DNA of 64,000 bases from a virus (IMGVR_UViG_3300008267_000039:61-64060); one strand, 5' to 3'. Shown: positions 13,558-44,287, numbered from the stretch's first letter. The notes: generated by a model not told the origin, from the sequence alone. Numbers and translations are program-made.

Positions 13558-13767
13558 TTATTCCTTTTCGGAAACAAACTTGTATAGTTCTTCGGCTCTT
13601 GCGATGATGTCGCTTGTCTTCGGTGTCAATGCATCAATTGCACTGGCATCATCCAACATTCCGTGACTATTGCGAACAGTATCCAACTTGTGGTGATACT
13701 TGTCATATTCGTCACTATGCGCCATTTGAAGAACTTCCAAACGGATTTCGTATGCGTTTTTGGTCAT
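13558..13767 (-). CDS. Conserved T4-like phage small protein
   Basis: NAYEIRLEVLQMA...IIARAEELYKFV; strong AAAGGAGG Shine-Dalgarno. Confidence 0.75.
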   Translation of the reverse strand: MTKNAYEIRLEVLQMAHSDEYDKYHHKLDTVRNSHGMLDDASAIDALTPKTSDIIARAEELYKFVSEKE

Positions 13768-19936: not shown

Positions 19937-20590
19937 TTATCCTTCGTAAGCTATATTAATTGTTCCAGCATCAAATGTATCTGTTCCGTTTACTGTGGTA
20001 ATGCTGATACGGTCGAGCGTTGATGTTAGCGATTTGATTCCATTAATTGTTGATGTTGTATTAGTCGAATCTTCAAATGCTGATCCACTTATAATCCAAT
20101 CATTTGAATTAATATTTATCATTGAAATAGTCCCATATCTTAAGTGCGCTGCACCATTACCTGGAACCGTAATTCCATTAGTAGGTGATGTTAATGAACA
20201 AAGATTGGTTCCTGATATGTTTCCAGATACAACAATATATCCAGTTGATTCTACTCCACCAGAATCACCGATTCGAATTTGAACTTCACTTGTTCCATTA
20301 GTACTAACACCATTTAATATTACGGTAATCCTCTTCACCCAACTTGGAATTCCAGTAAAGTCAACAGCAGTTCCAGATGCAGTTTTTGCGGTGGCAAGCG
20401 TCAAAGAACCCCCTGCGGTAAGCAAACCAGTTAAATTTCCTGTAACATTACCAGTAACATTACCAGTAACATTTCCAGTTAGATTTCCAATAATTTCACT
20501 TTCCGTAATAGTAGCGGCAGTAGTGCCATTTACCTTCAAATAACCTTGCGGTGAAATTGGATCATTTTGTAATGTAAGTGATGTTGCCAT
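19937..20590 (-). CDS. Short fiber protein, paralog 1
   Basis: GNVT shaft repeats; VDFTGIPSWVKRIT...TFDAGTINIAYE head. Confidence 0.75.
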   Translation of the reverse strand: MATSLTLQNDPISPQGYLKVNGTTAATITESEIIGNLTGNVTGNVTGNVTGNLTGLLTAGGSLTLATAKTASGTAVDFTGIPSWVKRITVILNGVSTNGTSEVQIRIGDSGGVESTGYIVVSGNISGTNLCSLTSPTNGITVPGNGAAHLRYGTISMININSNDWIISGSAFEDSTNTTSTINGIKSLTSTLDRISITTVNGTDTFDAGTINIAYEG

Positions 20591-20600: not shown

Positions 20601-21254
20601 TTATCCTTCGTAAGCTATATTAATTGTTCCAGCATCAAATGTATCCGTTTCATTGATTGTAGTAATGCGAACTCTATCAAGTGTTGATGTCAATGACTTG
20701 CTTCCGTTAATTCTCGTTGTAGTATTACCAATATCCTCAACTCCTGATCCGCTTATAATCCAATTATTTAAATTAATATTTATCATTGAAATAGTTGCAT
20801 ATCTTATGTGTGTTGCAAGAAGACCCGCTACAATAATTCCGGTAGTATATCCAAGTAATGAACAAGTGTTAGTTCCAGTTATGCCTCCGTTTGCATTACT
20901 ATATCCAGTTGATTCTACTCCACCAGAATTACCGAGTTGAATTTGAACTGCACTTGTTCCATTAGTACTAACACCATTTAATATTACAGTAATCCGCTTT
21001 ACCCAACTTGGAATACCAGTAAAGTCAACAGCAGTTCCAGATGCAGTTTTTACTGTTGCGCGAGTAAGTGATCCTCCAGTGGTGAGTGAACCAGTTAAAT
21101 TTCCTGTAACATTACCAATTAAATTTCCTGTAACATTTCCAGTAACATTACTGGTAATGCCGCTTTCCGTAATAGTAGCAGCAGTAATCCCATTGACCTT
21201 CAAATAACCTCGATCCAAAATTGCATCATTTTGTAATGTAAATGAGGTTGCCAT
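20601..21254 (-). CDS. Short fiber protein, paralog 2
   Basis: Same length (217 aa) and architecture as 19937-20590. Confidence 0.75.
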   Translation of the reverse strand: MATSFTLQNDAILDRGYLKVNGITAATITESGITSNVTGNVTGNLIGNVTGNLTGSLTTGGSLTRATVKTASGTAVDFTGIPSWVKRITVILNGVSTNGTSAVQIQLGNSGGVESTGYSNANGGITGTNTCSLLGYTTGIIVAGLLATHIRYATISMININLNNWIISGSGVEDIGNTTTRINGSKSLTSTLDRVRITTINETDTFDAGTINIAYEG

Positions 21255-22295: not shown

Positions 22296-22613
22296 CTAAA
22301 TTACAGTCCATGTTGATCCTGCTGGAACTGTTACGCTTACTCCAGCAGCAACCGTAACTGGTCCCACTGTCATTGCATTTTTGTTATTTGTGACAGTATA
22401 ATTTTGTGTTACTGTTTGGGAATTTTCCCAGAAAATTTTATCGTTTCCTCCACCAGTTGGATAAATCGAACCAATTTGAGCACTCAATTCACTTCTGAGT
22501 GTTCCATAGGTCCATTTTCTTTCTCCACCGGATTCGTTTTTTTCGTATCCGACGAAATAAGCTGATGTTGGTATTGTTGATGATGGTGAAAAATCACTGA
22601 AATCGACGGCCAT
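22296..22613 (-). CDS. Small fiber adaptor protein
   Basis: N-terminal SDF...VGY...GERKWT motif; C-terminal GGGNDKIFWEN...NAMTVGP...STWTVI. Confidence 0.7.
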   Translation of the reverse strand: MAVDFSDFSPSSTIPTSAYFVGYEKNESGGERKWTYGTLRSELSAQIGSIYPTGGGNDKIFWENSQTVTQNYTVTNNKNAMTVGPVTVAAGVSVTVPAGSTWTVI

Positions 22614-22657
22614 ATACTTTTATTTATATTCGAGCATTCACTTTTTCAAAAAAAAAA

Positions 22658-22800
22658 TCAAAAAGGATTCATATTTTCTCCATCGAATCCTTGGACTTGA
22701 TAATCCTCAAATGTCACAATTCCTTTCAATGGATAAATGTCCGCTCCATCTATTTCAGTTATTTGAACTCCATCAATCAAAGTCACTATTCCAGCACCCA
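22658..22800. repeat. 143-nt dispersed repeat, copy 1 (copy 2 at 36058-36200)
   Basis: 13 mismatches in 143 nt by manual alignment; 63 nt identical (22673-22735). Confidence 0.9.
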
Positions 22801-24733
22801 ATACAACGTTTGTGGGAGTAATTGATGGCGTGGGAGTTGGGGATGTTCCAATTGTTGGTGTAACAGTTGGAGTTACTGTGACAGTTGGAGTGGGAGTGGG
22901 AGTTGCAACAGGAGTTGCCGTTGGAGTTGGCCTTAACAAAGGAGCGGACAATGGTGGGCAATATAGATTATAAATTTCTATAAAATCATTTTCCACACTT
23001 TCGGAAAAAGGAACACCCACTGCAAGAATATCTCCAAAGATGTTGAGTTGTGTTCCATAATTTCTTTCTCCATCAAGTAGAGAAACAGAAGTGGGATAAT
23101 ATATTGTTCTATTTGTAAAATATCCAAATTGATCTTTTTCCAGCAAATATACTTTACCTTGGTTTGCCACTTCCAGTAAAGGATAATCGTCCAAATAAAA
23201 TGTTTCAAATGGTGCGGATATTGCAGCGCGTTTTCCAGAAATTTTAACGGAATATCCAAATGCACCAGACAATGTATCCATGTTGAAGTATTGCCCCATT
23301 TCGGAAATAAGAATCCATTCTTTACTGACAGGAGATAATACATAATGGAAAGCCTCTCCTTGATTGTTTCCAGCAATGTATCTCTTCTCCCCAAATGGAG
23401 CACCAACAATCATTTCATTGTCGTTTTGGATACTCATGGAATACCCAAATCCCCTTGCACCACTATAAGGTGGATTTATAGTTTGATGGTATTGGTATCC
23501 GAAGTCTGGATCTTTTTTGAAAGAAACTATTTTATCATCTGTGGAATAAGAGAGAAGATAATTCTCACTCATTTCAATATTTGTTCCAAGTCCAGTTACT
23601 GTGGAATTAAATGTCTGGTAAAACCTCCAAGTACCAATTGTGGAAAGAACATTTGATTCCGTGACATAATTGTAAACGTGATGGTTTTCTCCAGTGGAGG
23701 AAGATGCAATAACAAGAGTATCCCCATATCCTGCACAGGAAGTAATATCATCACTACTTATTGGAAGAGTAATTGTATTTTGTCTTATTGTCTTGTTTCC
23801 AAGAAATTCATATATGAGGAGTTTATTATCGGATTTTGCAAATATTAAATTCTCATGGTAATTTAATATTTTTAAAGGGTTTGTGCTTCTAAATTGTTGA
23901 CTTTTTACAAAATCTTTTCCATTGTATTTGTATATATTGAATCCCTTTTCTTGAGGGGATGCGATCCATTTTCCATTTGATGGAAGTCTATTTCCTTTTA
24001 GATTTGCTTCTGTGTTTATATCTTGGACACAGACTGTGTTTATTTTTTCCTCTTTCTTTGCGGGAAATCCTGCAACGTTGAATTGTTTTACATTGAATCT
24101 ACTATGTTGATCTAAGGAAGTATAGAACAATCCGACCTTGACTGACTTTTTATCATATACTGGAAGGTTTGTTTCAAGTACTGTTGTGAATTCCTTTTGG
24201 TTATCTTTTTTTACTTGAACCCTCAATTGGCTCATGCACTTGGAAAAAACAACTCTTGCTTGTTTATAAACAACTTCTTCTCCTGTGGAAGTTAATTGTT
24301 GGGATATTGTAAAATCTTTTGAATATTGTAGATTTTCAGTTTGTTTAAGAACTTTATAATCGTTTCTTATGCCGTCTCTAAGACAAATGGAATTTGCAGT
24401 TGTATGTTCCACACCTTGGACATAAGGTGTTCTTTTTGCAAAAATGCCATTTATATCAAAACCAATTCCATATACAGCCGCTTCCAGACCCTTTAATGTG
24501 GGTTCATTGCATTCTCTTGATTCACTTGGAGTATAGGCGAGGCTATATCTAATTCCCCCACCTCTTGGCTTGTCATTGATGCTTTCAAATAGAGCTATGC
24601 AAAATCCACAACTCGGAGTATCATCTATGTTGTATAAGGAATAATCAACACTGATTATGATATCATGGTGAGTATCTAGTGCCTGATCGTTCCAAAATTG
24701 AACAAACTTTTCTGTTGATTCGTTTTGTTGCAT
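22658..24733 (-). CDS. Structural protein: lectin-like domain, FG-GAP-like propeller, PT linker, C-terminal tandem modules
   Basis: GIGFDING; FGYSMSI...VGAP and FGYSVKI...ISAP repeats; PTPT linker. Confidence 0.7.
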   Translation of the reverse strand: MQQNESTEKFVQFWNDQALDTHHDIIISVDYSLYNIDDTPSCGFCIALFESINDKPRGGGIRYSLAYTPSESRECNEPTLKGLEAAVYGIGFDINGIFAKRTPYVQGVEHTTANSICLRDGIRNDYKVLKQTENLQYSKDFTISQQLTSTGEEVVYKQARVVFSKCMSQLRVQVKKDNQKEFTTVLETNLPVYDKKSVKVGLFYTSLDQHSRFNVKQFNVAGFPAKKEEKINTVCVQDINTEANLKGNRLPSNGKWIASPQEKGFNIYKYNGKDFVKSQQFRSTNPLKILNYHENLIFAKSDNKLLIYEFLGNKTIRQNTITLPISSDDITSCAGYGDTLVIASSSTGENHHVYNYVTESNVLSTIGTWRFYQTFNSTVTGLGTNIEMSENYLLSYSTDDKIVSFKKDPDFGYQYHQTINPPYSGARGFGYSMSIQNDNEMIVGAPFGEKRYIAGNNQGEAFHYVLSPVSKEWILISEMGQYFNMDTLSGAFGYSVKISGKRAAISAPFETFYLDDYPLLEVANQGKVYLLEKDQFGYFTNRTIYYPTSVSLLDGERNYGTQLNIFGDILAVGVPFSESVENDFIEIYNLYCPPLSAPLLRPTPTATPVATPTPTPTVTVTPTVTPTIGTSPTPTPSITPTNVVLGAGIVTLIDGVQITEIDGADIYPLKGIVTFEDYQVQGFDGENMNPF

Positions 24734-24783
24734 TGCGCCTTTTTATTATTTAAGGCGTTGGATTGTTAATTCAAAAAATATAG

Positions 24784-26310
24784 TTATTTATTTTCCAAGA
24801 CTTGTACGCGAACTTGAAGTTCTTCGTTTTCTGCTTTCAATTCTTGAACTGCTTTGATGAGAGGCCCAATCAATTCGCTATAACCAATAGAGAGAACATC
24901 GTCTCCACCTTTTACGGAGTGATCTTGGAAGCCACCAAAATCAATACCTTTAGCGTCAAGAACTGCTTTCACTTCTTGAGCAATCAATCCATGATGGAAT
25001 CGGCTGCGCTTCTTGCTGCCATCGTGAGTGATGTTGGCAAGTTTTACATCTTCAAGCCATTTGTCTTTAGCAACAACATAAGCATTGTAAGCTGCAAGTT
25101 CTTCTGCATATTTAGCTTTATCTTCATCAGAAGCGTCTTCTTTAAGTCCTATTGGTTTAGCAACAAATTTAGGTGCTTCTGGACGATAGTCCTCACGCAT
25201 ATCCCACTTAAAGTCAACTGGGCGAAGCGAATTTACAAATTCAAGGCCAAGAGTTGTGTCACGAATATCAGCTTTATCTCTGATGTCAGAACGATTTTGG
25301 ACAGCGCCATATGCATAAGTTGTTGTTGCGGAATTGCCAAGCTGAACTTGGTTTGATCCTGTTACTTGAGCATTATATCCAACCCCAGAACTATTAACTC
25401 CAGTTATATTATTATCAATCGCACCAAACCCAATTGCCGTGTTTTGATTTCCTGATGTATTCCCACCAAGTGCATTATACCCAACTGCCGTATTAGTGTC
25501 ACCGCCTATATTGGCTTGAAGCGCAAGCATCCCAACTGCGGTGTTATTGGTTCCAGTTGTGTTATCATTAAGTGCAGCACTTCCAACTGCTGTGTTGTTG
25601 ACTCCAGTTGTGTTAAGTAATAGTGCGCTTCTGCCAACTGCTGTGTTGTCTGTTCCAGTTGTGTTTGTGGAGAGTGCATTTACACCAACTGCGGTGTTGT
25701 CGACTCCAGTTGTGTTGTTAAGAAGTGCCTGTAATCCAACTGCTGTGTTGTTGGTTCCAGTGTTTGACCGAAGGGCGCGTTTTCCAATTGCTGTGTTATT
25801 TATACCAGTTGTGTTGTTGTAGAGTGCGCTTACCCCAACTGCGGTGTTGTCTGTTCCTGTTGTGTTGTTAAGAAGTGCCTGTAATCCAACTGCTGTGTTG
25901 TCGACTCCAGTTGTGTTGTTAAGAAGTGCCTGTAATCCAACTGCTGTGTTGTTGGATCCGGTTGTGTTAGAAGGCAGTGCAGAAACTCCAATTGCCGTGT
26001 TGTTTATTCCAGTTGTGTTTGATTGAAGTGCAATTCTTCCAACTGCCGTGTTAGATGTTCCAATTGTATTAAGTTCAAGCGCAGACTCTCCAACTGCGGT
26101 GTTGTTGATTCCAGTTGTGTTTGCGGCGAGCGAAGTAACACCAAAAGCGGTATTGTAATTACCAATATCGTTTTTTCTAGTTACGGTATTTGCAATTGTT
26201 GAAACAGTCCAACGTCTTTCTCCGTTTAATGCGGCTTCATCGTAACCGACAATGAAATCGTCCGGTGCGGCTGCTGCTGATAATGTGAAGTCTGATAATG
26301 TAGATGCCAT
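24784..26310 (-). CDS. Tail fiber/spike with YadA-head-like repeats and C-terminal S74 intramolecular chaperone
   Basis: Many 14-aa NTAVGxxALxxNTTG repeats; SDIRDK cleavage motif, GLIAQEV, Y.ELI.PLIKAVQEL. Confidence 0.88.
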   Translation of the reverse strand: MASTLSDFTLSAAAAPDDFIVGYDEAALNGERRWTVSTIANTVTRKNDIGNYNTAFGVTSLAANTTGINNTAVGESALELNTIGTSNTAVGRIALQSNTTGINNTAIGVSALPSNTTGSNNTAVGLQALLNNTTGVDNTAVGLQALLNNTTGTDNTAVGVSALYNNTTGINNTAIGKRALRSNTGTNNTAVGLQALLNNTTGVDNTAVGVNALSTNTTGTDNTAVGRSALLLNTTGVNNTAVGSAALNDNTTGTNNTAVGMLALQANIGGDTNTAVGYNALGGNTSGNQNTAIGFGAIDNNITGVNSSGVGYNAQVTGSNQVQLGNSATTTYAYGAVQNRSDIRDKADIRDTTLGLEFVNSLRPVDFKWDMREDYRPEAPKFVAKPIGLKEDASDEDKAKYAEELAAYNAYVVAKDKWLEDVKLANITHDGSKKRSRFHHGLIAQEVKAVLDAKGIDFGGFQDHSVKGGDDVLSIGYSELIGPLIKAVQELKAENEELQVRVQVLENK

Positions 26311-26356
26311 ATATTTTTATTTATATCTAAAGTTTCTTTTTTTTTAAAAGAAATTA

Positions 26357-27304
26357 TCAAAAAGGATCAAGTATTTCTCCATCAAATCCAAACATCTGGA
26401 AATCTTCAAAACTAACTATTCCTCTATCTTTTAATGGATATATGTCTTGACCACCACCCAATTCTCTAATCTGAATCCTATCTATAAGAGTTACAATGCC
26501 TTGACCATAAATTGGAGTTGGTGTTGGCGTTGGAGAAGGAGGTGATACAAGTTGATACAAAGATGATTTTCCATGCAAATATTGACCATCCGATAAAAAT
26601 TGAAATTTTCTTAAAAATATTCCGCTTGATGTGTTATATGTATTCTGATCGCTTGGAAATTTATATTTTGCACTATTAAATGTAACTTGAACGGGATTAC
26701 TACTCGCATCCATCATCAAAACAAAATGATATATGCCTCCCTTTTTATTTCCACTGAAATCTGAAATATACGAATCTGTATCTGTTATATATGTTGTTAC
26801 TTGACCCGCACTTAAATCCAACACAATGTTCAACGGATTGCTTGGATATATAAAATCATTCTTGAATGTTTTTTGTCTTGTTGATTCTTGAACCTTGTTT
26901 GTATACATCGTATTTTCGTTGTATACAGCATTCCAATAATCCAGATTGGCGCATAATGTTAAAAAGGTGGATTGATAATTCGCGGAAAGTGGTTTTAATT
27001 TGTTATATACAGTCCAATATTCATTCCAAAATGCACTGTTTGAACAAACCGTTGTATATGTTGTTAAATATTTTTCCCAAGTTGCGGAATTTGAATTTGT
27101 TATACTATATGCACTCCACCAGTCATAACTATCCGTTTTTGCAATAAAATTTCCATCTATTGTGTAAAGATCGTTATAAAATATTCCTTGAAAAGGAAAT
27201 TGCAAAGAAGCAATCGGATCTTTTGCCGACTCAGGATATCCAAAAGATGATACCGTGTGGTGATTGCTTCTGTGAAAATTGTTGTGGAAAATGAGGTTGT
27301 TCAT
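26357..27304 (-). CDS. Structural fiber-like protein, paralog of 27311-28312
   Basis: FHRSNHHT...DPIAS N-terminus, YTTVCSNSAFW repeats, PT linker and C-terminal modules. Confidence 0.7.
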   Translation of the reverse strand: MNNLIFHNNFHRSNHHTVSSFGYPESAKDPIASLQFPFQGIFYNDLYTIDGNFIAKTDSYDWWSAYSITNSNSATWEKYLTTYTTVCSNSAFWNEYWTVYNKLKPLSANYQSTFLTLCANLDYWNAVYNENTMYTNKVQESTRQKTFKNDFIYPSNPLNIVLDLSAGQVTTYITDTDSYISDFSGNKKGGIYHFVLMMDASSNPVQVTFNSAKYKFPSDQNTYNTSSGIFLRKFQFLSDGQYLHGKSSLYQLVSPPSPTPTPTPIYGQGIVTLIDRIQIRELGGGQDIYPLKDRGIVSFEDFQMFGFDGEILDPF

Positions 27305-27310
27305 GTCTCA

Positions 27311-28312
27311 TTATTGGAATCCAATCAAATTATCCCCACTTCCGAAAAATACTATTGGGTCATTATCGACAAATGTTGTAATTTGATTCGACGGAGTTGG
27401 AGTGGGTGGAAATAAGATCAAATTATCCCCACTTCCGAAAAATACTATCGGATCATTGTTAACAAACGATATGACTTGATTCAACGGTGTTGGTGTTGGA
27501 GTGGGTGTTTTTGTTGGAGTTACTGTTGGTGTTGGAGTTGGGCTAACGGGAATTAGATTTGTTTTATAAAATTCCCCATACATGAAATAGGAATCGCAGA
27601 GAAAATTGAATATCGTGGTTCCAGATAATGCGAAATTTATATCTGTTGCAATATTAACTCCAACAGGAAACAAATAGTTGCTCTCAAAAGTCAAACTATA
27701 TCCCCCAGATGGGGAACCTTGCACAACATATAAATTATACAATCCACCATTTTTCATTGTGGAAGGAACTGGGTTTTTAATTGTGACGTTTCTATCAAGA
27801 GTTAAAAATGCAACTTGTGCGATATCCAAGTTCCAATCTACCGTATTATCGCCATTGATTGTTAAATTATATCCACTGAATGTTTTTGATCTTGTGTTTT
27901 CTTGGACTCTGTTAGTATAGAGAACATATTCATTAGCCCAATTTGCACTGTTTGCACACACTGTGGTATATGTCGAACTCCAATTTGCAGAATTTGCACA
28001 CAATGTAGAATATGCACTGAAGCCCTTTCCCCAATTCGCACTATTAGCCTTTACTGTGGTGTATGTTGTTCCAATTGAATCCCAATTGGAAGACAATGAA
28101 CAAACTGAGGCATATGTACTATACCATTCATAGGAATTTGTGGGGATTTCATACGACCCTTGTTGATCTGTTAAGATATTATAAAAAATACCATTGAATG
28201 GTTCTTGCTGGCTCGCAATCGGATCAATGCCTTGATCCAACACCGATGCACTGGACAAGGTGTGGTGCGATGATCTGTGAAATTTGTTGTGAAGTCTAAA
28301 AAAACCAGCCAT
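27311..28312 (-). CDS. Structural fiber-like protein
   Basis: FHRSSHHT...DPIAS, YTTVxANSANW repeats, WNLDIAQVA domain, PT linker, duplicated C-terminal module. Confidence 0.7.
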   Translation of the reverse strand: MAGFFRLHNKFHRSSHHTLSSASVLDQGIDPIASQQEPFNGIFYNILTDQQGSYEIPTNSYEWYSTYASVCSLSSNWDSIGTTYTTVKANSANWGKGFSAYSTLCANSANWSSTYTTVCANSANWANEYVLYTNRVQENTRSKTFSGYNLTINGDNTVDWNLDIAQVAFLTLDRNVTIKNPVPSTMKNGGLYNLYVVQGSPSGGYSLTFESNYLFPVGVNIATDINFALSGTTIFNFLCDSYFMYGEFYKTNLIPVSPTPTPTVTPTKTPTPTPTPLNQVISFVNNDPIVFFGSGDNLILFPPTPTPSNQITTFVDNDPIVFFGSGDNLIGFQ

Positions 28313-28323
28313 AATGTTATTTA

Positions 28324-30156
28324 TTAATTAAAGGGTAACAGAGGATCGTTGCTGTCAAATCTCACAATATCCGATGAATTGATAAATGTTACAATTCCTT
28401 TTTGCATTTGAGTAAAGAGAAATAGAGGATCGTTGCTGTCAAATCTCACAATATCCGATGAATTGATAAATGTCACAAGCCCTTGTTGTCCTTGAGTTGG
28501 AGTTGGAGTTACGGTTGGAGTTGGTGTTGGAGTTTCGACATCAATATTCGCATAGTAATCCAAAGAATTGTCCAAATCAACGAAATCTAATGTTTTTTCT
28601 TGGAGATCGTAAAGTTTTTCAAATTCCCTGTTTATTACAGAATATTGGAAGTTTTCATTCACTCCAATAACAAAATCTGTTTTATATTGCAATGGTTCCA
28701 AATTGAATATAAATTTGTTGTAGATTTTTCTAATATCTGTAATTGAACCGAAATCCCCGTCTTTTCTTATTAGGTTGTAGTAAATATTATTTTTTAATAC
28801 ATCCAAATTTTTTGCGATTTTCTTGAAATTCTTTTCATAGACCCATGCTTGGTTCCATTCGTTTCTCTTTACTAAAATTTCATCTCTTGAATAAACATCA
28901 AAATCATCATTTCCAAGAACACTTATCAAATCGAGTTCATCTTCATAAATTAAAATTTGATAAGCATTTGCGGTTGAATTCCAAGTATAAATGTATATAT
29001 TGTCAGATGAAAAGGTTTTGGTTGCTGTGGTAAACCATTTGAATTCCGAATTGTTTCCAAAGTCCGAAACATTTTTTCTTCCTATAATTTCATCCTTTCT
29101 ATATTCCCACTTTTTAATAAGTGCCTTGTCTGTCAATATGTAAATTATATCATTCTCGTATTTGCAAAATTCCAAGTCCAATATGATTTCATTATCATAT
29201 AGAACGGATGAGAGAGACTGGAAAGAATTCAATGTGATTTGGTAATTTTCCAAATTCAAATCAAATACATAATAACCATCTTTCGTTATACCATAAATTG
29301 TATTTTCATCCTTGAATTTGATATTTTGAAAAGATGTGATGTTCTTATAAAGAGTTAATAGTGTTTTATAAGAAAGAAAATCTAAACTGGAATCATAGAG
29401 TTTCAGTATTTTATTACCATAATCTTCTACAAGAATAAATTCCCCATATGTCGCCATATTTGTGGGAGTTTCAAATTTTATGGAATTGTATCTTTCACCT
29501 TGACCTCCCACACTGTCTTGCAAAAACAATCTTCTTCCAAATGGGGATGATGGTGATTTGAAAATATTGTCATTGGAAAAATATGTTTCCAAATCATATT
29601 TGTATATCGTGTCCAGTTTTTCATCCGATACACAAAGATATTTGTCATTGAAAACGGAAATGTCACTTATCTTTTGAAATTTCAATTCACCGGAAATTGG
29701 ATCAACGGTTGAAACAATATTCGGGCAAACTTGGCAAAAATTATTATTTCCGTAATATCTTAGGACATTAATAGCGGACAAACAGTTGATAAAAAAGTAA
29801 TAAGAATCACCATCTTTATAAACTGTGGCATTTTTCGCATTATCCAAATTTCCAAATCCAGCATCCGCAAAAGGAGATGAATTTGTGAAATCTTGATAGA
29901 TTCCAATATCTGTCCCAGTGACTCCAATAAATCCAGTATATGTTGTTGGAACTTCAAAATTTGCAACAAAACATCTGCTGTACAAATAAAGAAAATTATC
30001 ATAGAGATATGATAATTTCATGTTAAATGCCTTATAATAAGACAACTCATTTGGTTGGATCAAATATTCGATCTTAAAAGGCAATGCATCATTGACATTC
30101 AACCTTCTATCATAGTTGAAATTACTCTTTGAAAATTCTGTCCTGATGCTTGTCAT
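28324..30156 (-). CDS. Baseplate-associated structural protein, propeller-like, with C-terminal tandem modules
   Basis: IGVNE...VINR motif; 50-nt exact duplication 28340-28389 / 28424-28473. Confidence 0.65.
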   Translation of the reverse strand: MTSIRTEFSKSNFNYDRRLNVNDALPFKIEYLIQPNELSYYKAFNMKLSYLYDNFLYLYSRCFVANFEVPTTYTGFIGVTGTDIGIYQDFTNSSPFADAGFGNLDNAKNATVYKDGDSYYFFINCLSAINVLRYYGNNNFCQVCPNIVSTVDPISGELKFQKISDISVFNDKYLCVSDEKLDTIYKYDLETYFSNDNIFKSPSSPFGRRLFLQDSVGGQGERYNSIKFETPTNMATYGEFILVEDYGNKILKLYDSSLDFLSYKTLLTLYKNITSFQNIKFKDENTIYGITKDGYYVFDLNLENYQITLNSFQSLSSVLYDNEIILDLEFCKYENDIIYILTDKALIKKWEYRKDEIIGRKNVSDFGNNSEFKWFTTATKTFSSDNIYIYTWNSTANAYQILIYEDELDLISVLGNDDFDVYSRDEILVKRNEWNQAWVYEKNFKKIAKNLDVLKNNIYYNLIRKDGDFGSITDIRKIYNKFIFNLEPLQYKTDFVIGVNENFQYSVINREFEKLYDLQEKTLDFVDLDNSLDYYANIDVETPTPTPTVTPTPTQGQQGLVTFINSSDIVRFDSNDPLFLFTQMQKGIVTFINSSDIVRFDSNDPLLPFN

Positions 30157-33100
30157 AAATTTTTAATATTTGTGAGAGAGTTTGAAACGTTATAATCTCC
30201 TTCCAGTACAAGAGGTTTTGCTATAGTATTAAGCCATTCAAATCCCAAAAGTTTTCCATAAAATGGAAGGAACTCCTCAATTCGTGTTGAAATATAATCT
30301 TCCATGTCTTTTTGGATATTTCTATCCACAATTCCGGAATTCAAAACAGTGAATTTGAAACTTCCACTCTTGTACATTGGAACATTGAAATTGAAAAGTT
30401 TGTCCATGCTGTCGATAAAGCTTCTTGTTCCGGATGGCATATTGTATTTCAAATCATTTGGAGGGTTAATCTTACAATAAAAATAAAGAGATTCAAACTC
30501 ATCCAAAAACTTGTTGATAATAAAGTTTTCTTTTAATTTCAGTTTGGAACAAGTGAAATCACTCTCATCTTTCATATATTGAAATGCAGGAACACCGTTG
30601 AAATAGACATTTGCACCATAATATAGTCTTTCATTGAATGTTTTGGAAAGAATGTATTTTCTTGGTTCAAAATTCACGGTTCCATACAATCTTCCGTCCA
30701 AATAGAATTTCGCAACACCCTTATAACAATCAATGCTGAAAACAAAGTGCCTGTATCCTGTTGCAAGATCATTTTTATCAATAATAAAAACAACATCTGT
30801 AAAATCTTCAATATTGAGTCGATTTAAAATTCTCACCTTGAAGTGATATGTTTTTTCGTTATAGGTCGCACTCAAGCATTGAATGTTGTGATTGTAGTTT
30901 GAAATATCCAAATTGTTCTGAATCAAATCATACTTTTGATTTAATTTAATAACTTTTTGATTATATTTTTCATCCAGTTGAATGACATATGATGCACTTA
31001 AATTTTGACAAAATACATTTTTGAATTTTCTTAGTTCACCATATTCGAATTTTTCACAATAACTTATTTGTTTTGCACTTAGGGAATATGCACTAAGTGA
31101 TAATGTGAATGCACGTTTCAATTCATCTTGTTCGTATTGGAGGAAATCACTTCCAGAAACAATATCGATTTTTTCATCTTTTGTTACTCCAAAACAATCT
31201 ATATTTTTATTCAGTGTGATTAGAGAAGAAATAGAACTTAAAGTTGTGGAATAAGTTTTAATCTCATTGGAAGAGAGATAATAGATGTTTGTGTTTCTAA
31301 TGACTGGTTGTTTTCCATAAACCTTGTAAAGGTTTTGATTGTTATCTACAAGCAATTCAAAAGAGGAACCAACATCAATTGATGTTTTTTCCACTACAAC
31401 CGATGCATTGTTTGAGTTCAAATCAACTGCTGCAATTCCATTTGATGTTGCGACATAGAAATAATTTTCATCATTTGTTGTGGAAAATACTTGATCTGTT
31501 GGTTGAAGGGATAATATATCCGCAATAGCTGAATTGGAATCGACAATTGTTCCCCTCAAGTTCAATTCAATCAATCTAAAATCTTCTGCAACAGCATGGA
31601 TGTTTTCAAAACCATTTCTTCTCGCTATCCCAACAATTGAACAGAGGCTCATATTCTCTGTGGAAAGATCATCAATTTTTTTAAAATTATTGTTTAGAAT
31701 TGAAATGGTTGTATCGTCTTTTTTTAGAATATTATATGGTGTTGTTAAAATATAATTATAGAAGCCAAATCCATTGTTTACATAATTTCCAAATATCAGG
31801 TTTCCGCTTGGAACACTCCAATCTTCTTTTTCCAAGAAGAATGAAAATGTTGCAACATTTTGGTCAAAGTTCTTGTTGGATTCCACGAATCCAAATGTTT
31901 TACCATCAAAAGTGTATTCTCCTGTTTTATTTTCTAATTCTAAAAAATTTGTTTTTCTGTATGCATCTAAATCGGTGTGCAAAATTTTAGATGAAAGGGA
32001 CTCAACTATGAGATTTTCGTAATCGTTTTGACCCAAGTGCATGTAGGCATAGTAACAACCTTTTTCAAAGGTAAGACTGCTTTTGACATCGGAAACGTCT
32101 TCTTTCAAGTCCAAACAATCGAAACTATTTTTATATATGATTTCTGTTGCAGTCGCGGATAATGCAACATAAGGAGTTGTTTTGGATGGTTTATAGTAAC
32201 GATCCATCCAAATTGGTCTTGTATTCGGGTTTCCAGCGGACAACCAAGCACATAACCATTGACCCGTGTTTTCTTCGCTTGGATTGGAATATGGGGAGGT
32301 ATTACGGTAATCTTTAAGTTTTTTCCAAATCTTATCACTGTTTAAAGGACAATTTCCACCAACAGCACCAGATTCCGCGAGTTTACTGGAATTAACATTC
32401 AATTTTTCGTATGGATATATGTCATGGGGTACGTGAAAATATGTCGTCTTTCCGCTTTTAAAAACAAATGGAGTCGTATATGCGGAATATCCCAAGTTGA
32501 TTTTATCGTACCCTTCATTTCTATATCCACCTGTAAAAATACTTTCGTATTCTTTTAAATTGGTTTCATTCTCTCCGAGAAATACGTTTCCCCTGCTTTG
32601 ATCGTTCTCTTGGTTTAATTGATTTTTCAATGTCATCACATTGACAGGAAGAGAAGAAACAATCGAATTGATTGTTGTTGTAAAAAGTTGATTGTTTTTT
32701 ACATCAAAATGACTTCTTGTTTTGCTGACTTCCAAATTATTTTGATTGAAAGTATCATTATACGATACCCAATTGTTTACATTTGACATTCCATCTACTT
32801 CTTGTTTTCTTTTTATATAAAAATTGTTATCATTTGAAAACGCGGAAACGTATGTCATTAAAAGATCGCTGTTCTTTTTTTTGATCGCATAATTTCCAAT
32901 TTTACTTTGAACGTAGAAAATTATTCCGTTTTCATTTAAAATATAATTCAATTCGGTTGGATAATTGTCTATATTCGTTGCAGTTAAACATATCATTTTA
33001 ACAGAACTTAGTGCAAGAGAATAAGCAAGTATATATTTTAAATTATTTTTTTCGTGATAAATTTTACATTTATCATCGTTCAAAAAATCGACTTGGAATA

Positions 33101-33467
33101 TGTTTTTTCTTCCCAAATCTTCAAACAATCCATTGACTTTTACATTTTCCCCATCATTTATCCAAAATGTTGCATTATTATTAAATGCACCAGTAGAACT
33201 GGAATATATGTATGCAAGTTCATTTTGACCATCCAATGTTTCGTGTTTGAAGTCCAAAAATCCACTGAGATTATCATTTCTGGATAAAATTGTTACAGTG
33301 TAATTGTTTGTCTTAATATCTTTTGTATTTTTAAAACTCGGAATGATATTGTAATTTAAATTCCCATCAACATTCAATTGAATGTTTTTAATATCCATAT
33401 TATCATCAAATGGATATTCCACATTCATTGTATCGTAACTTTTGTCTGAAATGAATCTTGTAAGCAT
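30153..33467 (-). CDS. Large baseplate-associated protein with LamG-like segments
   Basis: 1104 aa; YRHFVFSID...KFYLDG; lies in the baseplate cluster. Confidence 0.65.
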   Translation of the reverse strand: MLTRFISDKSYDTMNVEYPFDDNMDIKNIQLNVDGNLNYNIIPSFKNTKDIKTNNYTVTILSRNDNLSGFLDFKHETLDGQNELAYIYSSSTGAFNNNATFWINDGENVKVNGLFEDLGRKNIFQVDFLNDDKCKIYHEKNNLKYILAYSLALSSVKMICLTATNIDNYPTELNYILNENGIIFYVQSKIGNYAIKKKNSDLLMTYVSAFSNDNNFYIKRKQEVDGMSNVNNWVSYNDTFNQNNLEVSKTRSHFDVKNNQLFTTTINSIVSSLPVNVMTLKNQLNQENDQSRGNVFLGENETNLKEYESIFTGGYRNEGYDKINLGYSAYTTPFVFKSGKTTYFHVPHDIYPYEKLNVNSSKLAESGAVGGNCPLNSDKIWKKLKDYRNTSPYSNPSEENTGQWLCAWLSAGNPNTRPIWMDRYYKPSKTTPYVALSATATEIIYKNSFDCLDLKEDVSDVKSSLTFEKGCYYAYMHLGQNDYENLIVESLSSKILHTDLDAYRKTNFLELENKTGEYTFDGKTFGFVESNKNFDQNVATFSFFLEKEDWSVPSGNLIFGNYVNNGFGFYNYILTTPYNILKKDDTTISILNNNFKKIDDLSTENMSLCSIVGIARRNGFENIHAVAEDFRLIELNLRGTIVDSNSAIADILSLQPTDQVFSTTNDENYFYVATSNGIAAVDLNSNNASVVVEKTSIDVGSSFELLVDNNQNLYKVYGKQPVIRNTNIYYLSSNEIKTYSTTLSSISSLITLNKNIDCFGVTKDEKIDIVSGSDFLQYEQDELKRAFTLSLSAYSLSAKQISYCEKFEYGELRKFKNVFCQNLSASYVIQLDEKYNQKVIKLNQKYDLIQNNLDISNYNHNIQCLSATYNEKTYHFKVRILNRLNIEDFTDVVFIIDKNDLATGYRHFVFSIDCYKGVAKFYLDGRLYGTVNFEPRKYILSKTFNERLYYGANVYFNGVPAFQYMKDESDFTCSKLKLKENFIINKFLDEFESLYFYCKINPPNDLKYNMPSGTRSFIDSMDKLFNFNVPMYKSGSFKFTVLNSGIVDRNIQKDMEDYISTRIEEFLPFYGKLLGFEWLNTIAKPLVLEGDYNVSNSLTNIKNL

Positions 33468-33492
33468 TTTGGAAAATGTCCCTAGAAACTAT

Positions 33493-34572
33493 TTAGATGA
33501 ACGTTTCCAGTTCTGATCCACCAAAGCGAATAACATTTCCACCATTAACAAATGTAACAATGTTGGGATTGAATCCTGTAATGAATGGATACATGTCTTG
33601 ATTCGCAAAAGATACTATCTGATAATCTTCAAAGCTAACTATTCCCTTGTCTGTCAATGGATAAATGTCTTCCCCTCCACCGAGTTCTCTCATTTGTATT
33701 TTATCCACAAGAGTCACAATACCCTTATCATATACAGGTGTTGGTGTGGGACTTGGCTGCGGTGGAATGACGGGATTTACATTTACAGGTGGAATTGGAA
33801 TCTGTATTGTCGTTGTAGAAATTTGTTGCAACAATCCAATACCAAGAGGAATTGCAAGTGGTGCTTCAGTTGCGAATGGTAATTGTTGAACAGTTTCTTC
33901 CAACTCAAATTTCAATGAAGTTGAAATGTTTGTGAGTATTAAATCATCCTGTAAATTATCATTTACAAACAATAATACATTTGATGATTTTTTGTAAAAA
34001 GGAACAACCTCAACTATTGTTTTATCCTTATAAGAATCAAAAATACCACATTGAACAGAAGTTAAAGGAATTGTTATGTTTACAACATTTCCATCCTCAT
34101 AATAAATTTCAAACTTGGGATAAAACAAAGTATAAAATTCTTCACTTGGATAGTAGGTAGATTGTATTGAACTTAATACTGGATAATACAATTGACTATT
34201 TTGTATTTTTGAATCAAACGTTTGTGATTCCAATCCATTATCTGGATTAAAAATGAGTTTGATTATTTTAGATTCTGTCTGATCAAACTCTGATAAATCA
34301 AAAGTAACATCTGAATTACAAAAAACATAGTGACCCTCCAGAATTAATTCATTTTCGGGTAAATCATCATATGCCAATTCAGTTTGCCCACCGCTTAAAT
34401 ATTCTGTAAAAATTGTTGCGATTTCTCCACCAAATACGCTTGTTGGGTAAAAAAACGACAAAGGTGATGCCATCGGATCAAGCAAATATCCACCATGCAA
34501 AACGTTATAAGTGTCCGATGCGCTGAATGGTGATAGATATGTGCCTGTGACAACAATGGTCAACGATGTCAT
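33493..34572 (-). CDS. Structural protein with Pro-rich linker and three C-terminal modules
   Basis: TAAATA at 34578-34583; GIVTLVD..., GIVSFED... and NIVTFVN... modules. Confidence 0.65.
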   Translation of the reverse strand: MTSLTIVVTGTYLSPFSASDTYNVLHGGYLLDPMASPLSFFYPTSVFGGEIATIFTEYLSGGQTELAYDDLPENELILEGHYVFCNSDVTFDLSEFDQTESKIIKLIFNPDNGLESQTFDSKIQNSQLYYPVLSSIQSTYYPSEEFYTLFYPKFEIYYEDGNVVNITIPLTSVQCGIFDSYKDKTIVEVVPFYKKSSNVLLFVNDNLQDDLILTNISTSLKFELEETVQQLPFATEAPLAIPLGIGLLQQISTTTIQIPIPPVNVNPVIPPQPSPTPTPVYDKGIVTLVDKIQMRELGGGEDIYPLTDKGIVSFEDYQIVSFANQDMYPFITGFNPNIVTFVNGGNVIRFGGSELETFI

Positions 34573-34600
34573 ATGATTATTTAATAGATTGGCGATAGAA

Positions 34601-36031
34601 TCACGACCAACCTATGAATTGACTTTCAAATCCAGCGGATGCAATTAAAGTTAAAGTTGTTCCAATTGGATACATGTATTCACAATAATCATTGCAATAT
34701 ATACAGTTATTCTCATCTAACAACACATAACCATAACCTGATCCTGTTTTATCAATTGAAAGTATGGCATAGATTGAATCATCACATAAATTAGCAGAAA
34801 ATACAGTCCCGCTTGTTGAATAAACGTTTAAATACAGGATTTCGTTATCAGGATACGTTGGTCTAACAACATCAACTTTAAATTCTTCGCTACCTATGTA
34901 AAAATTGGAAATTTCATAAACTTTATTTGAAACACTCAAATATTGAAATTCTGTTCCATAATTTAAAATAAGGTCACTTACGTTATCTTTAACATTAATT
35001 GCGGAACAACCAATGAAAAAATTAACATTGTTATATGACTCCCAATCGAATTGAATCACATATTTTCCAATTTTATTGATTTGTAAAACATCGGAATTTG
35101 ATGCAAAAACATAATTTAAACCATTTTCATCGACGTTTTCTACGATTTTTAATTTATAATCATCTTTTCCACCAAGATATGCCGCTTTATTTGAAATTCC
35201 TCTCACATAATAAGGCATTTCTGGATTGGAATAATTATTGTCCAATATATAGTAAAAAGGCTTCAACAATATCGGAGTTTCCGATATAAATGTATTATTT
35301 TCAGATTGATAATATAATTTTTCACTGACAACAAATGGCAATGCATTCACATTTCTGGCCATATATGTCAGATTGAATTCATTCAATACAGGATTTTTCT
35401 TGAACGATCCACCCACGTATTCAAATAAATTTATTTCAGGAAGATCGCCCAAAGATGTGGAGAGAGAATAAACTCTGGTGTCCGTGTCATTAAGTGGATA
35501 TATTTTTTTATAATCCACTTTTTTCACATCTGTTGCATAAATCTCAGGTATGATTTGTTTATAGTTTGAAGATGAGAGAGAATTTTTTTGGGTCGTTAAA
35601 AAAACCAAAAACATTCTTTGGAATTTTTCATCGTACCAAGGATTGATGAAAACATCCAAATATTTGCTGACTTCTCCTTTTTTCTTATAAAATGGTTTTG
35701 TATTTGTATTTTTAAATACATTTGTTTCAATATCATACAAATAAGAGTCACTGACGACATAATTATCTGTTTCTATGACAAATATGTTGTTTATCAGGAA
35801 AAATTTTAAACTTTTATTTTCAACTTCTTCTTTTACAGTATTTGGATATTTGAAAAAAATAGAGGAAAGAGTATCGACAATGTTGTTCGTTTTCCCATGG
35901 TAATTGTTTCTAACAAATATTTTACCCTCAACCACATTTTTTCTTTGATACAAAGAAACGTTTTGCGGCTCCCTTTCTTGGAAAACTGTATTTGAGTCGG
36001 AAATTAATCCACCATCATTCAACATTGACAT
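34601..36031 (-). CDS. Baseplate-associated protein ending in a truncated InlB B-repeat-like domain
   Basis: TAAATA at 36037-36042; ends KTGSGYG...C...C...GTTLTLIAS...FIGWS-stop. Confidence 0.65.
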   Translation of the reverse strand: MSMLNDGGLISDSNTVFQEREPQNVSLYQRKNVVEGKIFVRNNYHGKTNNIVDTLSSIFFKYPNTVKEEVENKSLKFFLINNIFVIETDNYVVSDSYLYDIETNVFKNTNTKPFYKKKGEVSKYLDVFINPWYDEKFQRMFLVFLTTQKNSLSSSNYKQIIPEIYATDVKKVDYKKIYPLNDTDTRVYSLSTSLGDLPEINLFEYVGGSFKKNPVLNEFNLTYMARNVNALPFVVSEKLYYQSENNTFISETPILLKPFYYILDNNYSNPEMPYYVRGISNKAAYLGGKDDYKLKIVENVDENGLNYVFASNSDVLQINKIGKYVIQFDWESYNNVNFFIGCSAINVKDNVSDLILNYGTEFQYLSVSNKVYEISNFYIGSEEFKVDVVRPTYPDNEILYLNVYSTSGTVFSANLCDDSIYAILSIDKTGSGYGYVLLDENNCIYCNDYCEYMYPIGTTLTLIASAGFESQFIGWS

Positions 36032-36057
36032 ATTATTATTTAATGGTGAACGCTAAA

Positions 36058-36200
36058 TCAAAAAGGATTAACATTTTCTCCATCGAATCCTTGGACTTGA
36101 TAATCCTCAAATGTCACAATTCCTTTCAATGGATATATATCTTCACCATCTATTTCAGTCATTTGAACTCCGTTAATCAAAGTTACTATTCCAAGACCCA
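36058..36200. repeat. 143-nt dispersed repeat, copy 2
   Basis: About 91% identical to 22658-22800. Confidence 0.9.
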
Positions 36201-36597
36201 TAATTGTCTGAGTTGGAGTTACTGTAGGAGTGACCGTTGGAGTCGGCGTTGGAGTAACTGTTTTAGTTGGAGTTATGCTTGGTGTTGGAGTAACAGTTGG
36301 AGTTATTGTATTAGTTGGTGTTATGCTTGGAGTTGGAGTAACAGTTGGTGTTTGAGTATTGGCTGGAGTCTGAGTTATGGTTGGAGTTATGCTTGGTGTT
36401 GGGGTAACTGTTGGAGTTATTGAAGTTGTTGGAGTTACCGTTTGAGTCGGTGTTGGAGTAATAGTCGAGGTTGGAGTTATCGTTGGAGTGACGGAAGATG
36501 TGGGGGTCTGAGTTGGCGTTGGAGTTAACTTGAAAAAGTTACAACAGACCTTAACATTCCCCCTAATTTCAACTGTCAAATCATTTGTTTCAATCAT
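36058..36597 (-). CDS. Small protein: B-repeat end, long PT linker, tandem C-terminal modules
   Basis: ATGA overlap with the upstream gene; about 105 aa of TPT repeats. Confidence 0.7.
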
Positions 36598-38435
36598 GGT
36601 ATTTCACTGGAAGTTGGTGTGACTGTTGGTGTCGGAGTTGTAGTCTCGGTTGGAGTATTCGTTAAGGTTGGAGTTGGCGTAGAAGTGCTTGACGGTGTGA
36701 CAGTTGGAGTTGGGGTAGGTGTCGGTGTTAATTCTTCTGTTGGTGTAACAGTTGACGTGATTGTCGGTGTTGGAGTTGGCGTAGAAGTGCTTGACGGTGT
36801 GACAGTTGGAGTTAAAGTATTTGTCGGAGTTATGCTTGGGGTTGGTGTGGGGGTGGAATCCGGTGTCGGTGTTGGGGTTTGAGATGGAGGAGGTGTTGGG
36901 CTTGGTGCTATTCCAGTCTTAAAATAACTTCCAACTTTTTTATAAAGACCAAACTCATTAGAAGATTCATCACAGTACCAATCGACCACTACTCCTTCAT
37001 CTAACAATAATTCTTTTTTATCTTCTTCTATTGGGAAGCCATTTAAATCAAATGATCCATCCCAAATGAAATTTTTATCTCCTTTCCAAAATGTGACATT
37101 ATCCGTTACTTTTGCTATTCCTTCGGTTGATACTTTTGTATTTTGTTGTCTGCTTTGATAACCATAAAAAAGTTGATTGTAATTATTACTCAATACATCA
37201 TTGAACCTATAACCATTTGAAATTTTTGTTCTATTCCATTCAACATCTATCAAATAAACGAGTGGTACATTTTCATTTTCTTGACCAGATGTGTAAATTG
37301 TATTTCCAATTTTATTTGGATCTGGGAAAATATAAATTTTATCTCTATCAATTTTAGAAGAATCAATTTGATATGCTTTCTTTGGTGTATTATAAATTAG
37401 AATTCCTTGGTTTTGAGGAACAAAAAATCCACCAACTTCATATATGCTATAAATGTTTTCCAACGATTCCGTTAAAATTGTTGTTGCAAAATGTTTGTTT
37501 AAATATTGCCCATCAAATGAATTGGAATCAAAAAGCAAACCGGAAACACTTTTGTTTTCCGAATTTGTGGAAAGATAATAAAAATTTGTTCCAATAAACT
37601 TTGGATAAAGTGATTTGAAAATATTTATTTTTAAACTATCCTGACCATTTTGAATGTAATCGATAAAATCTCTTGATTTCAAATATTGTAGTTCAGTTCC
37701 ACTTAAAATTGGATTATATGTAAAATTAGAAATATATGAGGTTTCTGAATTTTTCAAATAAAATGGATAAGCTGATATCGCATCAACAATTGATTGTTTA
37801 ATGTTTATGAAAATATTTGGATCTATTTTATTTGTAAATGTATGTTCCGTATTTTCAGGATTATCGTAAAAAATATCCGAATCGGAGTATGTTTCAACTA
37901 TGGAAACGTCAAAGTTTGTATGAAAAGATGATAATTGTTTTCTATTTGTTCTTAAATTGTTATCAATATAGTCATAAACAAGTTTTTTAACAATAGTCTC
38001 AACACCGAAGTTACTACCCTTTAGATTGTATTTTATGAGGCTGTTTTTTACTTCTTTTCTCTTGTCACTATAATACAGGGAAATTTGTTTTAATTTTTGA
38101 ATGAAAAAAGGAATAATGATATCCAAATCGGAGTCGTCATTGAAGTCGGCATTTAATATAAACCTTTTCTCTTCTTCTGTGGAAAAATTCAAAGTGATTT
38201 CCCGCATCAAATTCACATAGGCATCTCTGACAATGGCATTTTCTTCTGATTTTTTAAGATTCTTTTTACTTGCCCAAGTGTTTACGTATTGTTGATATGA
38301 TTTAAGTTGTTCATTCACATCAATATTGGAAAAATTCTGATATTGCATGAATGCAAGAAAAGAATACGGTGAATCCCAATCCTTTGGATTTTGGGAATCG
38401 TTTACAATACTGTATGGTAGAAATGAAAACACCAT
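36594..38435 (-). CDS. Baseplate-associated protein with C-terminal PT-rich tail
   Basis: 613 aa; IIIPFF..KLK motif; PT repeats without terminal modules. Confidence 0.7.
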
Positions 38436-43813: not shown

Positions 43814-44287
43814 TTAGTTAAAATAGTATCCAGATTCAGCCAAAGTTCCCTTTACCTGCAATCCTTTAATATTTAATGAGGGAACCGATAAAAACAGGTC
43901 TATTGTGTATTGTTGATTATCATAATCCGTTGTTATGTTTATATTGTCCACGGTCACTCTCGGTTCAAACTTTGTAATTCCTTTAATAATTGTATCTCCA
44001 AGCATTCTCGCATTTTCTGCGGTAATTCCTGTAAAAAGATAATATAGAAGATTTAAACCAAATATGGGATTAAGAATTTTTTGGCCAGGTATCGTAGTGA
44101 AAATATTAAAAATACTGTTTTTTATTGCCGCCACATCGTAATCGACAACAATATCTCTTTGCTCCTTGAAATTATTTAAAGGGTTTGTTTTCGTGTAATC
44201 TATCGTCAAATCCACCTCTAGATCTTTATATGTATAATCCCTTTCTTTTGGGAACTTGTTGAGTTCTGTGATTACAATGGATGCCAT
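43814..44287 (-). CDS. gp25: Baseplate wedge / sheath initiator
   Basis: AIKNSIFNIFTTIPGQKILNPIFG...FEPRV. Confidence 0.9.
   Translation of the reverse strand: MASIVITELNKFPKERDYTYKDLEVDLTIDYTKTNPLNNFKEQRDIVVDYDVAAIKNSIFNIFTTIPGQKILNPIFGLNLLYYLFTGITAENARMLGDTIIKGITKFEPRVTVDNINITTDYDNQQYTIDLFLSVPSLNIKGLQVKGTLAESGYYFN

Follow-up and report, generated by a model that had tools for sequence, protein, structure and literature searches.

Short tethered C-terminal modules on baseplate-cluster proteins of an uncultured, distantly T4-like myovirus lineage: a putative new family of accessory adhesion units

Type I dockerins (Dockerin_1) are segments of ~22 residues, mostly paired, that stand at the C-terminus of their carriers behind a Pro/Thr-rich linker. 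They adopt a loop-helix structure, occur on many unrelated secreted enzymes of one genome, contain acidic D/N/G-rich turns and come in several subtypes. Choline- and cell-wall-binding repeats (CW_binding_1) are C-terminal tandem units of ~20 aa, usually four or more in number, that form aromatic hairpins and bind a surface polymer by avidity. In phages, T4 Hoc, the C-terminal domain of lambda gpV and lactococcal BppA are accessory Ig-like or carbohydrate-binding domains, autonomous folds of 80–150 aa that are present in many phage groups and are thought to provide weak, avidity-based adhesion. The foldon of T4 fibritin is a C-terminal beta-hairpin unit of <30 residues that folds only by association of chains, while phages CBA120 and G7C mount branched tailspikes on one baseplate via folded N-terminal domains of the spikes. 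Here we describe a set of C-terminal tails in a viral DNA stretch of 64,000 nucleotides (IMGVR_UViG_3300008267_000039:61-64060), referred to below as the window. It comprises nearly all of a 64,060-base IMG/VR virus record with a CheckV completeness of ~30%. Six proteins encoded between positions 22,296 and 36,597 end in a proline/threonine-rich (PT) linker followed by two or three related modules of 21–23 residues, which appear to constitute an undescribed protein family.

The six carriers, designated A to F, bear 2, 2, 2, 2, 3 and 2 module copies at their ends, 13 in total, each tail following a P/T-rich linker; that of E is P-rich and shorter than in the other carriers. All are encoded on the minus strand. 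Carrier A (691 aa; 22658-24733) consists of a body of FG-GAP repeats (PF14312 FG-GAP_2, 3.5e-8), a PT linker at ~22811-22930 and a tail (22661-22792) with one type 1 module (22727-22792) and one type 2 module (22661-22723). The same pair ends carrier B (315 aa; 26357-27304), with type 1 at 26432-26500 and type 2 at 26360-26422 of a tail that spans 26360-26500. The tail of C (333 aa; 27311-28312) extends over 27314-27475 and holds two C-type, type 3-like modules (27410-27475 and 27317-27382) with a mini PT linker of 9 aa between them. Two type 3 modules (28414-28482 and 28330-28398), identical to each other at 63 of 69 nt, form the tail (28327-28482) of D (610 aa; 28324-30156), and E (359 aa; 33493-34572) terminates in one module of each subtype: type 1 at 33655-33723, type 2 at 33583-33645 and type 3 at 33499-33564 (tail 33496-33723). 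F (179 aa; 36058-36597) combines a conserved N-terminal peptide of 24 aa with a PT tether of ~110 aa and modules at 36127-36192 and 36061-36123.

The original prediction had placed 13 modules on these six open reading frames (ORFs), and both the translations and the hidden Markov model (HMM) scan described below bear this out. It had also taken the six bodies to be all different. This holds for most of them, no other pair matching at E <= 0.01, but not for B and C, whose bodies are paralogous (40% identity over 249 aa). Of the 52 minus-strand ORFs that reach 80 aa, only six (A, B, C, D, F and G) contain PT-rich stretches, and the plus-strand frames contain none. G (613 aa; 36594-38435, minus strand) has a PT linker of ~100 aa at its end (~36606-36905) and is module-free in the window.

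An HMM built from the 13 copies was scanned over the 1859 six-frame segments of at least 20 aa in the window. Exactly 13 domains were found (i-Evalue 7e-11 to 4e-7), in the six ORFs only, and the next segment had a full-sequence E of 2.1. In a less circular test each of the six proteins in turn was omitted from the model, and the best E reached by any of the other 1853 segments ranged from 0.23 to 3.4. Under these conditions both modules of A, of B and of F were recovered, as were all three of E (weakest 0.06) and, weakly, both of D (6e-4 and 0.058), whereas neither of the two C modules was. It is thus chiefly their position that links the C-type copies to the family, their kinship not being demonstrable by sequence alone. 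At the same position, C orthologues carry a D-type module (in the relative G003) or a type 1 plus type 2 pair (P0013).

Three subtypes can be distinguished. Type 1 is present in A, B, E and F, and type 2 follows it after a gap of 1–3 residues, so that the two form a tight pair. Type 3 comprises the third module of E together with the D and C forms and stands alone or doubled, with a short spacer of its own. Common to all is a hydrophobic first strand (G-I-V-T-F/L), a turn and a second hydrophobic strand ending in F, L or I; then come an acidic turn rich in D, N and G and a last hydrophobic segment, which mostly ends in P-F/L and often coincides with the C-terminus. The unit may accordingly be pictured as a strand-turn-strand mini-module of ~22 residues, the strand assignment being of low confidence. 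Tethers measure from ~15 to at least 110 residues and, judging by total length, more in some F orthologues.

The module pairs of A and F are nearly the same, as had been noted earlier, with 40 of 44 aa and 121 of 132 nt identical. At the DNA level, identity between A and F is 91% over the last 143 nt and drops to 73–78% in the linker. F itself consists of anchor peptide, tether and modules and nothing else, an anchor-shaft-tip layout that resembles a fibre. Its total length in relatives is 173, 177, 179, 189, 223 or 293 aa with the 24-aa head conserved, which indicates that tether length is free to vary. The start of F overlaps the stop of G (ATGA; 36594-36600), and we considered whether G and F are one broken gene. 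This was rejected: the ATGA overlap and the F head recur in the relatives G002 and L054, and F is intact in L050, L051, L053, L054 and L055.

Does this family extend beyond the window? A profile of the six tails, searched against 1.84 billion representative proteins, gave 13 matches at E <= 1e-3. Four of these are orthologues of E, F and C. The remaining nine are long repeat proteins; none of them has a module-like stretch that by itself exceeds 3.5 bits, none has a PT run, and their matches are not C-terminal. A word-indexed search of 5.8 billion proteins yielded 16 matches, all orthologues of A, B or E. Besides the window record, 11 contigs among the 2.9 million of IMG/VR bear modules, as do 11 loci of a metagenome collection, and a collection of genomes from 185,579 species contributed a single 32.6-kb contig (C10), 99.9–100% identical to the relative G001, within a 2.9-Mb metagenome-assembled genome (MAG; G004). 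The family is thus essentially confined to one lineage of uncultured myoviruses.

No match to the modules was found in Pfam, PHROGs, PDB sequences or the ESM Atlas (in the latter, no usable neighbour), in agreement with the earlier remark that the motif was not recognised as a described family. For the tails the one PHROG match, phrog_15511, falls on the PT linkers in A and F and not on the modules. Pfam-A hmmscan of 12 tails at E <= 10 returned nothing except a chance Pedibin match at 0.27, and a profile of the 12 tails found none of 177,635 distinct PDB sequences at E <= 10. A full-text literature search for PT linkers and PT-rich regions in phage baseplate and tail proteins, judged by titles and the openings of abstracts, met no description of such tails. 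At the level of sequence, the module is a new protein family.

How do these modules relate to the systems named at the outset? Like type I dockerins, they are mostly paired segments of ~22 residues with acidic D/N/G-rich turns and several subtypes, placed at the C-terminus behind a Pro/Thr linker on many unrelated carriers of one genome (six in the window, at least eight families across relatives). Unlike dockerins, they give no match to Dockerin_1 (PF00404), either in the 12 tails at E <= 10 or in the six whole carriers. They are strand-prone in a low-confidence model and not of the loop-helix kind, they occur in 1–3 copies instead of a fixed pair, and their carriers are virion proteins. No cohesin-like partner was found in Pfam scans, which covered part of the ORFs of a genome of which ~30% is in hand. 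The GGxGxDxUx nonapeptide of RTX proteins (HemolysinCabind) is not matched at E <= 10, and the period here is 21–23 aa. With choline- and cell-wall-binding repeats the modules have in common a tandem, C-terminal arrangement of units of similar size; they differ in copy number and in their conserved positions, and CW_binding_1 is not matched at E <= 10.

Among phage systems, the likeness to Hoc, gpV and BppA lies in dispensable-looking additions to structural proteins that are present or absent among close relatives. Here, however, the units are of 22 aa on long PT tethers and belong to one lineage, and no Ig, FN3 or CBM family of Pfam was matched on the tails. The foldon resembles them in being short (<30 residues) and C-terminal on a phage fibrous protein, the hairpin being in our case a low-confidence model only; it differs in that the modules show no sequence similarity to PDB entries, occur as tandem copies of three subtypes and are separated from the body by a disordered tether. 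CBA120 and G7C find a parallel in a conserved N-terminal motif of ~45 aa that is joined to swapped C-terminal domains in this lineage, but no PT-tethered C-terminal peptides are involved in those phages. Taken by its sequence features, the system would belong with the accessory modules on phage structural proteins, the module family itself being new.

The modules are translated and under purifying selection, and they change faster than the bodies to which they are attached. In 11 of 11 orthologous tail comparisons the rate of nonsynonymous differences (pN) was far below that of synonymous differences (pS), which shows that the modules are translated and constrained; for the same reason we rejected a DNA-level repeat without meaning for the protein. 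The ratio dN/dS was 0.05–0.28 in the nine comparisons with a computable dS. Tail pS reached 0.32–0.89, so that synonymous sites are near saturation with the protein conserved. Tail pN exceeded body pN in 9 of the 11 comparisons, and in 12 orthologue pairs the identity of the tail was lower than that of the body nine times, equal once and higher twice. The two higher cases, D and E of G002, look like tail recombination.

Three longer syntenic relatives, G001 (39 kb), G002 (18.6 kb) and G003 (28.7 kb), have bodies 69–100% identical to those of the window. Together with shorter loci they provided 53 distinct tails, many of them orthologous, so that counts do not represent independent events. Proteins that lack modules in the window carry them elsewhere: orthologues of G in G001 and L054 end in one module, and a 476-aa protein that is tail-free in the window (34601-36031, minus strand) acquires a PT linker and one type 3 module in G002, L051, L052 and L053. 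In G001, beside the orthologue of a 1163-aa protein of the window, a PT linker, a small domain and a second PT linker are followed, after a frame change, by two modules that sit directly before a further domain of ~240 aa and not at the C-terminus. This domain has no Pfam match; it looked lectin-like to us, an impression only. Judged by sequence, the cassette is found on at least eight protein families of the baseplate and fibre cluster, with the 1163-aa gene neighbourhood as a ninth context.

The frame change of G001 (at ~13,590-13,610, L031) lies in PT-coding repeat DNA, between a 1314-aa ORF and a 349-aa open frame that holds the two modules and the domain, and could stem from an error of assembly. 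It recurs in the 99.9%-identical MAG contig, which is probably not an independent assembly. In F of G002 (L033), too, the reading frame changes within PT-coding repeat DNA.

The number and kind of modules vary on one and the same carrier. C and D, each with two modules in the window, have a single one in G001, G002, G003 and L036; A bears two modules in 10 distinct tails but type 2 alone in L047; F has 2, 3 or 1 among relatives. In two E orthologues (P0018 and P0020) an unrelated Trp-rich motif of ~23 aa, which may be another kind of terminal unit, takes the place of the third module at the C-terminus, and the C orthologue P0013 has the type 1 plus type 2 pair in place of the C type. A in L042 and L058 carries a type 1 variant seen in F of G001, and in L036, L039 and L045 the tail of A has a linker end like that of F in the window. 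These sequences indicate that linker-plus-module cassettes are exchanged between carriers, and the earlier observation that subtypes are reused in different combinations is borne out by the cassette exchange, copy-number changes and subtype swaps across relatives. The order of subtypes is nevertheless fixed: the 53 distinct tails comprise T1-T2 (28), T1-T2-T3 (10), T3 (8), T3-T3 (2), T1 (2), T1-T3 (1), T2-T3 (1) and T2 (1), and none of the 42 multi-module tails shows the reverse order. Eleven of the 53 have a single module.

What could such tails be for? We tentatively favour the reading that they are flexible tentacles whose tips serve as weak, multivalent adhesion units for the host surface, an account that we hold possible rather than probable. 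The carrier body, or in F the 24-aa peptide, would fix the tail to the baseplate, the tether would let the modules sweep a large volume, and the terminal modules would act as weak binding units by avidity. Both binding by the cassette and its target are our proposal; the likeliest target would be a common, repetitive component of the host surface, contact with which would bring about a first, reversible capture. Fine host specificity would reside elsewhere, in fibres that share the N-terminal motif, namely a tailspike in the window and a diversified Mtd-like fibre in a relative. Modules are gained, lost and changed in number while bodies remain 69–100% identical, and an accessory function fits this pattern better than an obligatory plug-and-socket. 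The layout of F with its freely variable tether, the placement of specificity in other proteins and the precedent of adhesion domains point the same way. Such precedent is provided by the Ig-like or carbohydrate-binding domains that some phage structural proteins carry as accessories, and by the PT-linked binding modules of glycoside hydrolases.

Several points weigh against adhesion tentacles. Known adhesion domains are usually spread over many phage groups, and confinement to a single lineage fits a phage-encoded partner at least as well. The strict order of subtypes suggests positional specialisation, by co-folding or by a polar partner, and not simple additive avidity. The 53 tails on which the pattern is read are, as stated, in large part orthologous. 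Finally, AlphaFold2 produced no confident fold, either for the E tail (76 aa, 12-row alignment; mean pLDDT 43.5, pTM 0.25) or for full-length E (12 orthologues; mean pLDDT 35.7). If the tails do act as adhesion tentacles, a phage living in dilute water would widen its capture radius very economically: recombination in the linker DNA can place copies of a 22-aa tip, with its inexpensive PT tether, on any baseplate protein. Under either adhesion or docking, the modules are a compact, undescribed protein family under selection, and labelled tails could serve as probes for the host of this uncultured lineage.

Could the modules instead bind partners within the virion? The original prediction saw in them tethered docking peptides that recruit fibres or adaptors to several baseplate proteins, plugs and sockets of a branched adsorption apparatus. 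Such an apparatus would be re-wirable and comparable to dockerin and cohesin. Its candidate partners were two fibre proteins with the ~45-aa N-terminal motif in common, and these deserve description first. One is a tailspike of 508 aa (phrog_4636; Peptidase_S74 chaperone; 24784-26310, minus strand) directly downstream of B; the other is a 105-aa fibre-tip protein (22296-22613, minus strand) directly downstream of A. In the collection of 5.8 billion proteins, the motif heads 11 proteins of 282–387 aa with differing C-terminal parts, several of which appear to share contigs with modules. Six of the 11 carry an "Mtd second domain" according to precomputed Pfam annotation, one of them confirmed by scan.

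G001 contains an apparently complete diversity-generating retroelement (DGR; L032:7810-10600, ~26.8-29.6 kb of G001) whose target is a motif-bearing fibre of 387 aa with the Mtd second domain. Its variable repeat (VR) of 119 nt (27837-27955) differs from the template repeat (TR; 28363-28481) at eight positions, all eight at TR adenines, and a 322-aa reverse transcriptase (RVT_1, 1.5e-21) adjoins the two. This is the only VR/TR pair found, and none was seen within modules. In the window, the Peptidase_S74 tailspike occupies the position of this Mtd-like fibre. The C-terminal half of the 105-aa protein is 52–67% identical to tail-fibre tips of T7-like cyanophages (P-SSP7, S-SBP1), Lentibacter phages and others, and a protein of Synechococcus phage S-CAM7 aligns with its residues 12-105. 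Its tip thus resembles a fibre-tip domain common to podo- and myoviruses, a weak hint at the kind of host. With swapped C-terminal domains, a DGR target and likeness to fibre tips, the motif-bearing fibres look like specificity determinants.

The gene order favours docking. A gene ending in type 1 plus type 2 is directly followed by a motif gene in three contigs: in the window, B precedes the tailspike and A the 105-aa protein; in G001, B precedes the Mtd-like fibre and A the orthologue of the 105-aa protein; in G003, B precedes a protein of 112 aa. The dockerin-like layout described above, the fixed order of subtypes and the pair that stands in G001 directly before the ~240-aa domain, rather than C-terminally, are also in keeping with docking, as is the close similarity of same-subtype modules within a genome (in G001, the modules of F and of the ORF beside it show 2 differences in 24 positions). 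Restriction to one lineage would be expected if the partner is encoded by the same phage.

Against this stand 13 modules on six proteins facing only two motif-bearing proteins in the window, and a presence and number of modules that shift between close relatives while the fibres stay. Motif and modules do co-occur, as had been anticipated, but both are confined to one lineage, so that their association amounts to a single phylogenetic event, carries no independent weight and cannot discriminate between the readings. The S-CAM7 protein extends over nearly the whole 105-aa protein; full-length E, tail included, is unmatched by tblastn in 50,697 phage records. The Pfam scans of window and relative proteins, with ~30% of the genome in hand, revealed neither Cohesin nor Dockerin. 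A complex prediction of three copies of the 105-aa motif protein with the three-subtype tail of E gave a score of 0.15, the mark being 0.32, which speaks neither for nor against docking.

We therefore find no support for modules as sockets for the motif-bearing fibres, co-occurrence being uninformative and modules being gained and lost between close relatives. The other half of the original interpretation, autonomous, tethered and reusable modules of several subtypes, agrees with the cassette exchange, the variable copy number and the layout of F. Folding into a known autonomous domain had been named as fatal to docking; no such domain was matched in Pfam or the PDB, and docking stands to that extent. 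As a whole, we judge it unlikely. Somewhat less likely again is a full virion-borne equivalent of cohesin and dockerin, in which the three subtypes would be PT-tethered plugs that capture phage-encoded partners and are re-wired by recombination of PT repeats; its partners might be the motif-bearing fibres or adhesin domains that carry modules themselves, as proposed for the ORF of G001. As docking plugs, the modules would give the first case of a virion assembled in a dockerin-like way, and a cohesin-dockerin-like arrangement, if true, would mean that a branched adsorption apparatus can be built, and can evolve, on a new principle.

Alternatively, the modules might bind each other, as foldon-like knots at the tether ends of an oligomeric carrier, with one layer for each subtype, or as a net that cross-links different baseplate proteins. 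Their many conserved hydrophobic and aromatic positions are consistent with self-association, and their in-register order is what one would expect of parallel chains that stack like on like. The low-confidence monomer model of the E tail hints at paired strands in its first and third modules, which is compatible with a fold acquired when chains associate. A unit of 22 aa is too small for a stable fold of its own, and yet single modules make up the 11 tails mentioned above. It is difficult, on the other hand, to see the use of a folding nucleus that is parted from its body by a disordered tether of ~100 or more residues, and modules are gained and lost among orthologues. We consider self-association doubtful, to about the same degree as docking.

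It is very improbable that the modules are a diverged form of a known calcium- or cell-wall-binding short repeat, such as a dockerin, an RTX nonapeptide or a choline/cell-wall repeat, and hence nothing new: the acidic D/N/G-rich turn after the second strand and a period of ~20–22 aa are held in common, but Pfam, PDB (E <= 10) and ESM Atlas were negative, and the profile search of 1.84 billion proteins reached only its own lineage and the nine long repeat proteins that lack true modules. That the tails are functionless, hitch-hikers of recombination-prone PT-coding repeats or artefacts of assembly, is scarcely credible, for although PT-coding DNA is repetitive and harbours the frame changes of two metagenome assemblies (G001 and F of G002), independent assemblies (11 IMG/VR contigs, 11 metagenome loci) show the modules in frame and at the end of their proteins, and purifying selection is seen in 11 of 11 comparisons, with the protein retained in spite of near-saturated synonymous sites.

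The cluster that encodes the carriers is headed by genes for gp25-like (43814-44287, minus strand) and gp6-like (41980-43812, minus strand) baseplate wedge proteins, and all module-carrying genes lie downstream of these. Adjoining the wedge genes is that of the 1163-aa protein (38487-41978, minus strand), which has no tail in the window; it contains a PKD domain near the N-terminus and a weak match to beta-propeller repeats. Adhesion-type folds are thus seen in several proteins of the cluster, the FG-GAP repeats of carrier A being another case. The window also encodes a tail sheath (54427-56841) and a large terminase (57484-59676). The best identity of the sheath is 34–39%, over the C-terminal third to half only, to sheaths of T4-like phages of many hosts, and neither the 14.3-kb region (nucleotide-level search) nor protein E (tblastn) had a match in the 50,697 deposited phage records. 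Together, these results identify the virus as an uncultured, distantly T4-like myovirus.

With respect to the host, a tRNA search of the window was negative and Pfam scans of 10 further window ORFs revealed no host-specific family. The G001-like contig C10 was binned in a bacterial MAG (G004), which may reflect mis-binning or provide a clue to the host; binning is weak evidence in this regard. Two tandem paralogues of 217 aa (19937-20590 and 20601-21254) with (N-V-T-G)n-like N-terminal repeats and no Pfam match are probably further small fibres. Elsewhere in the window, an ORF at 14957-16093 encodes a homing endonuclease of the LAGLIDADG type, and a 520-aa protein (61751-63313) contains DUF7487 together with weak, below-cut-off matches to Mom-like and REase_MTES_1575 families.

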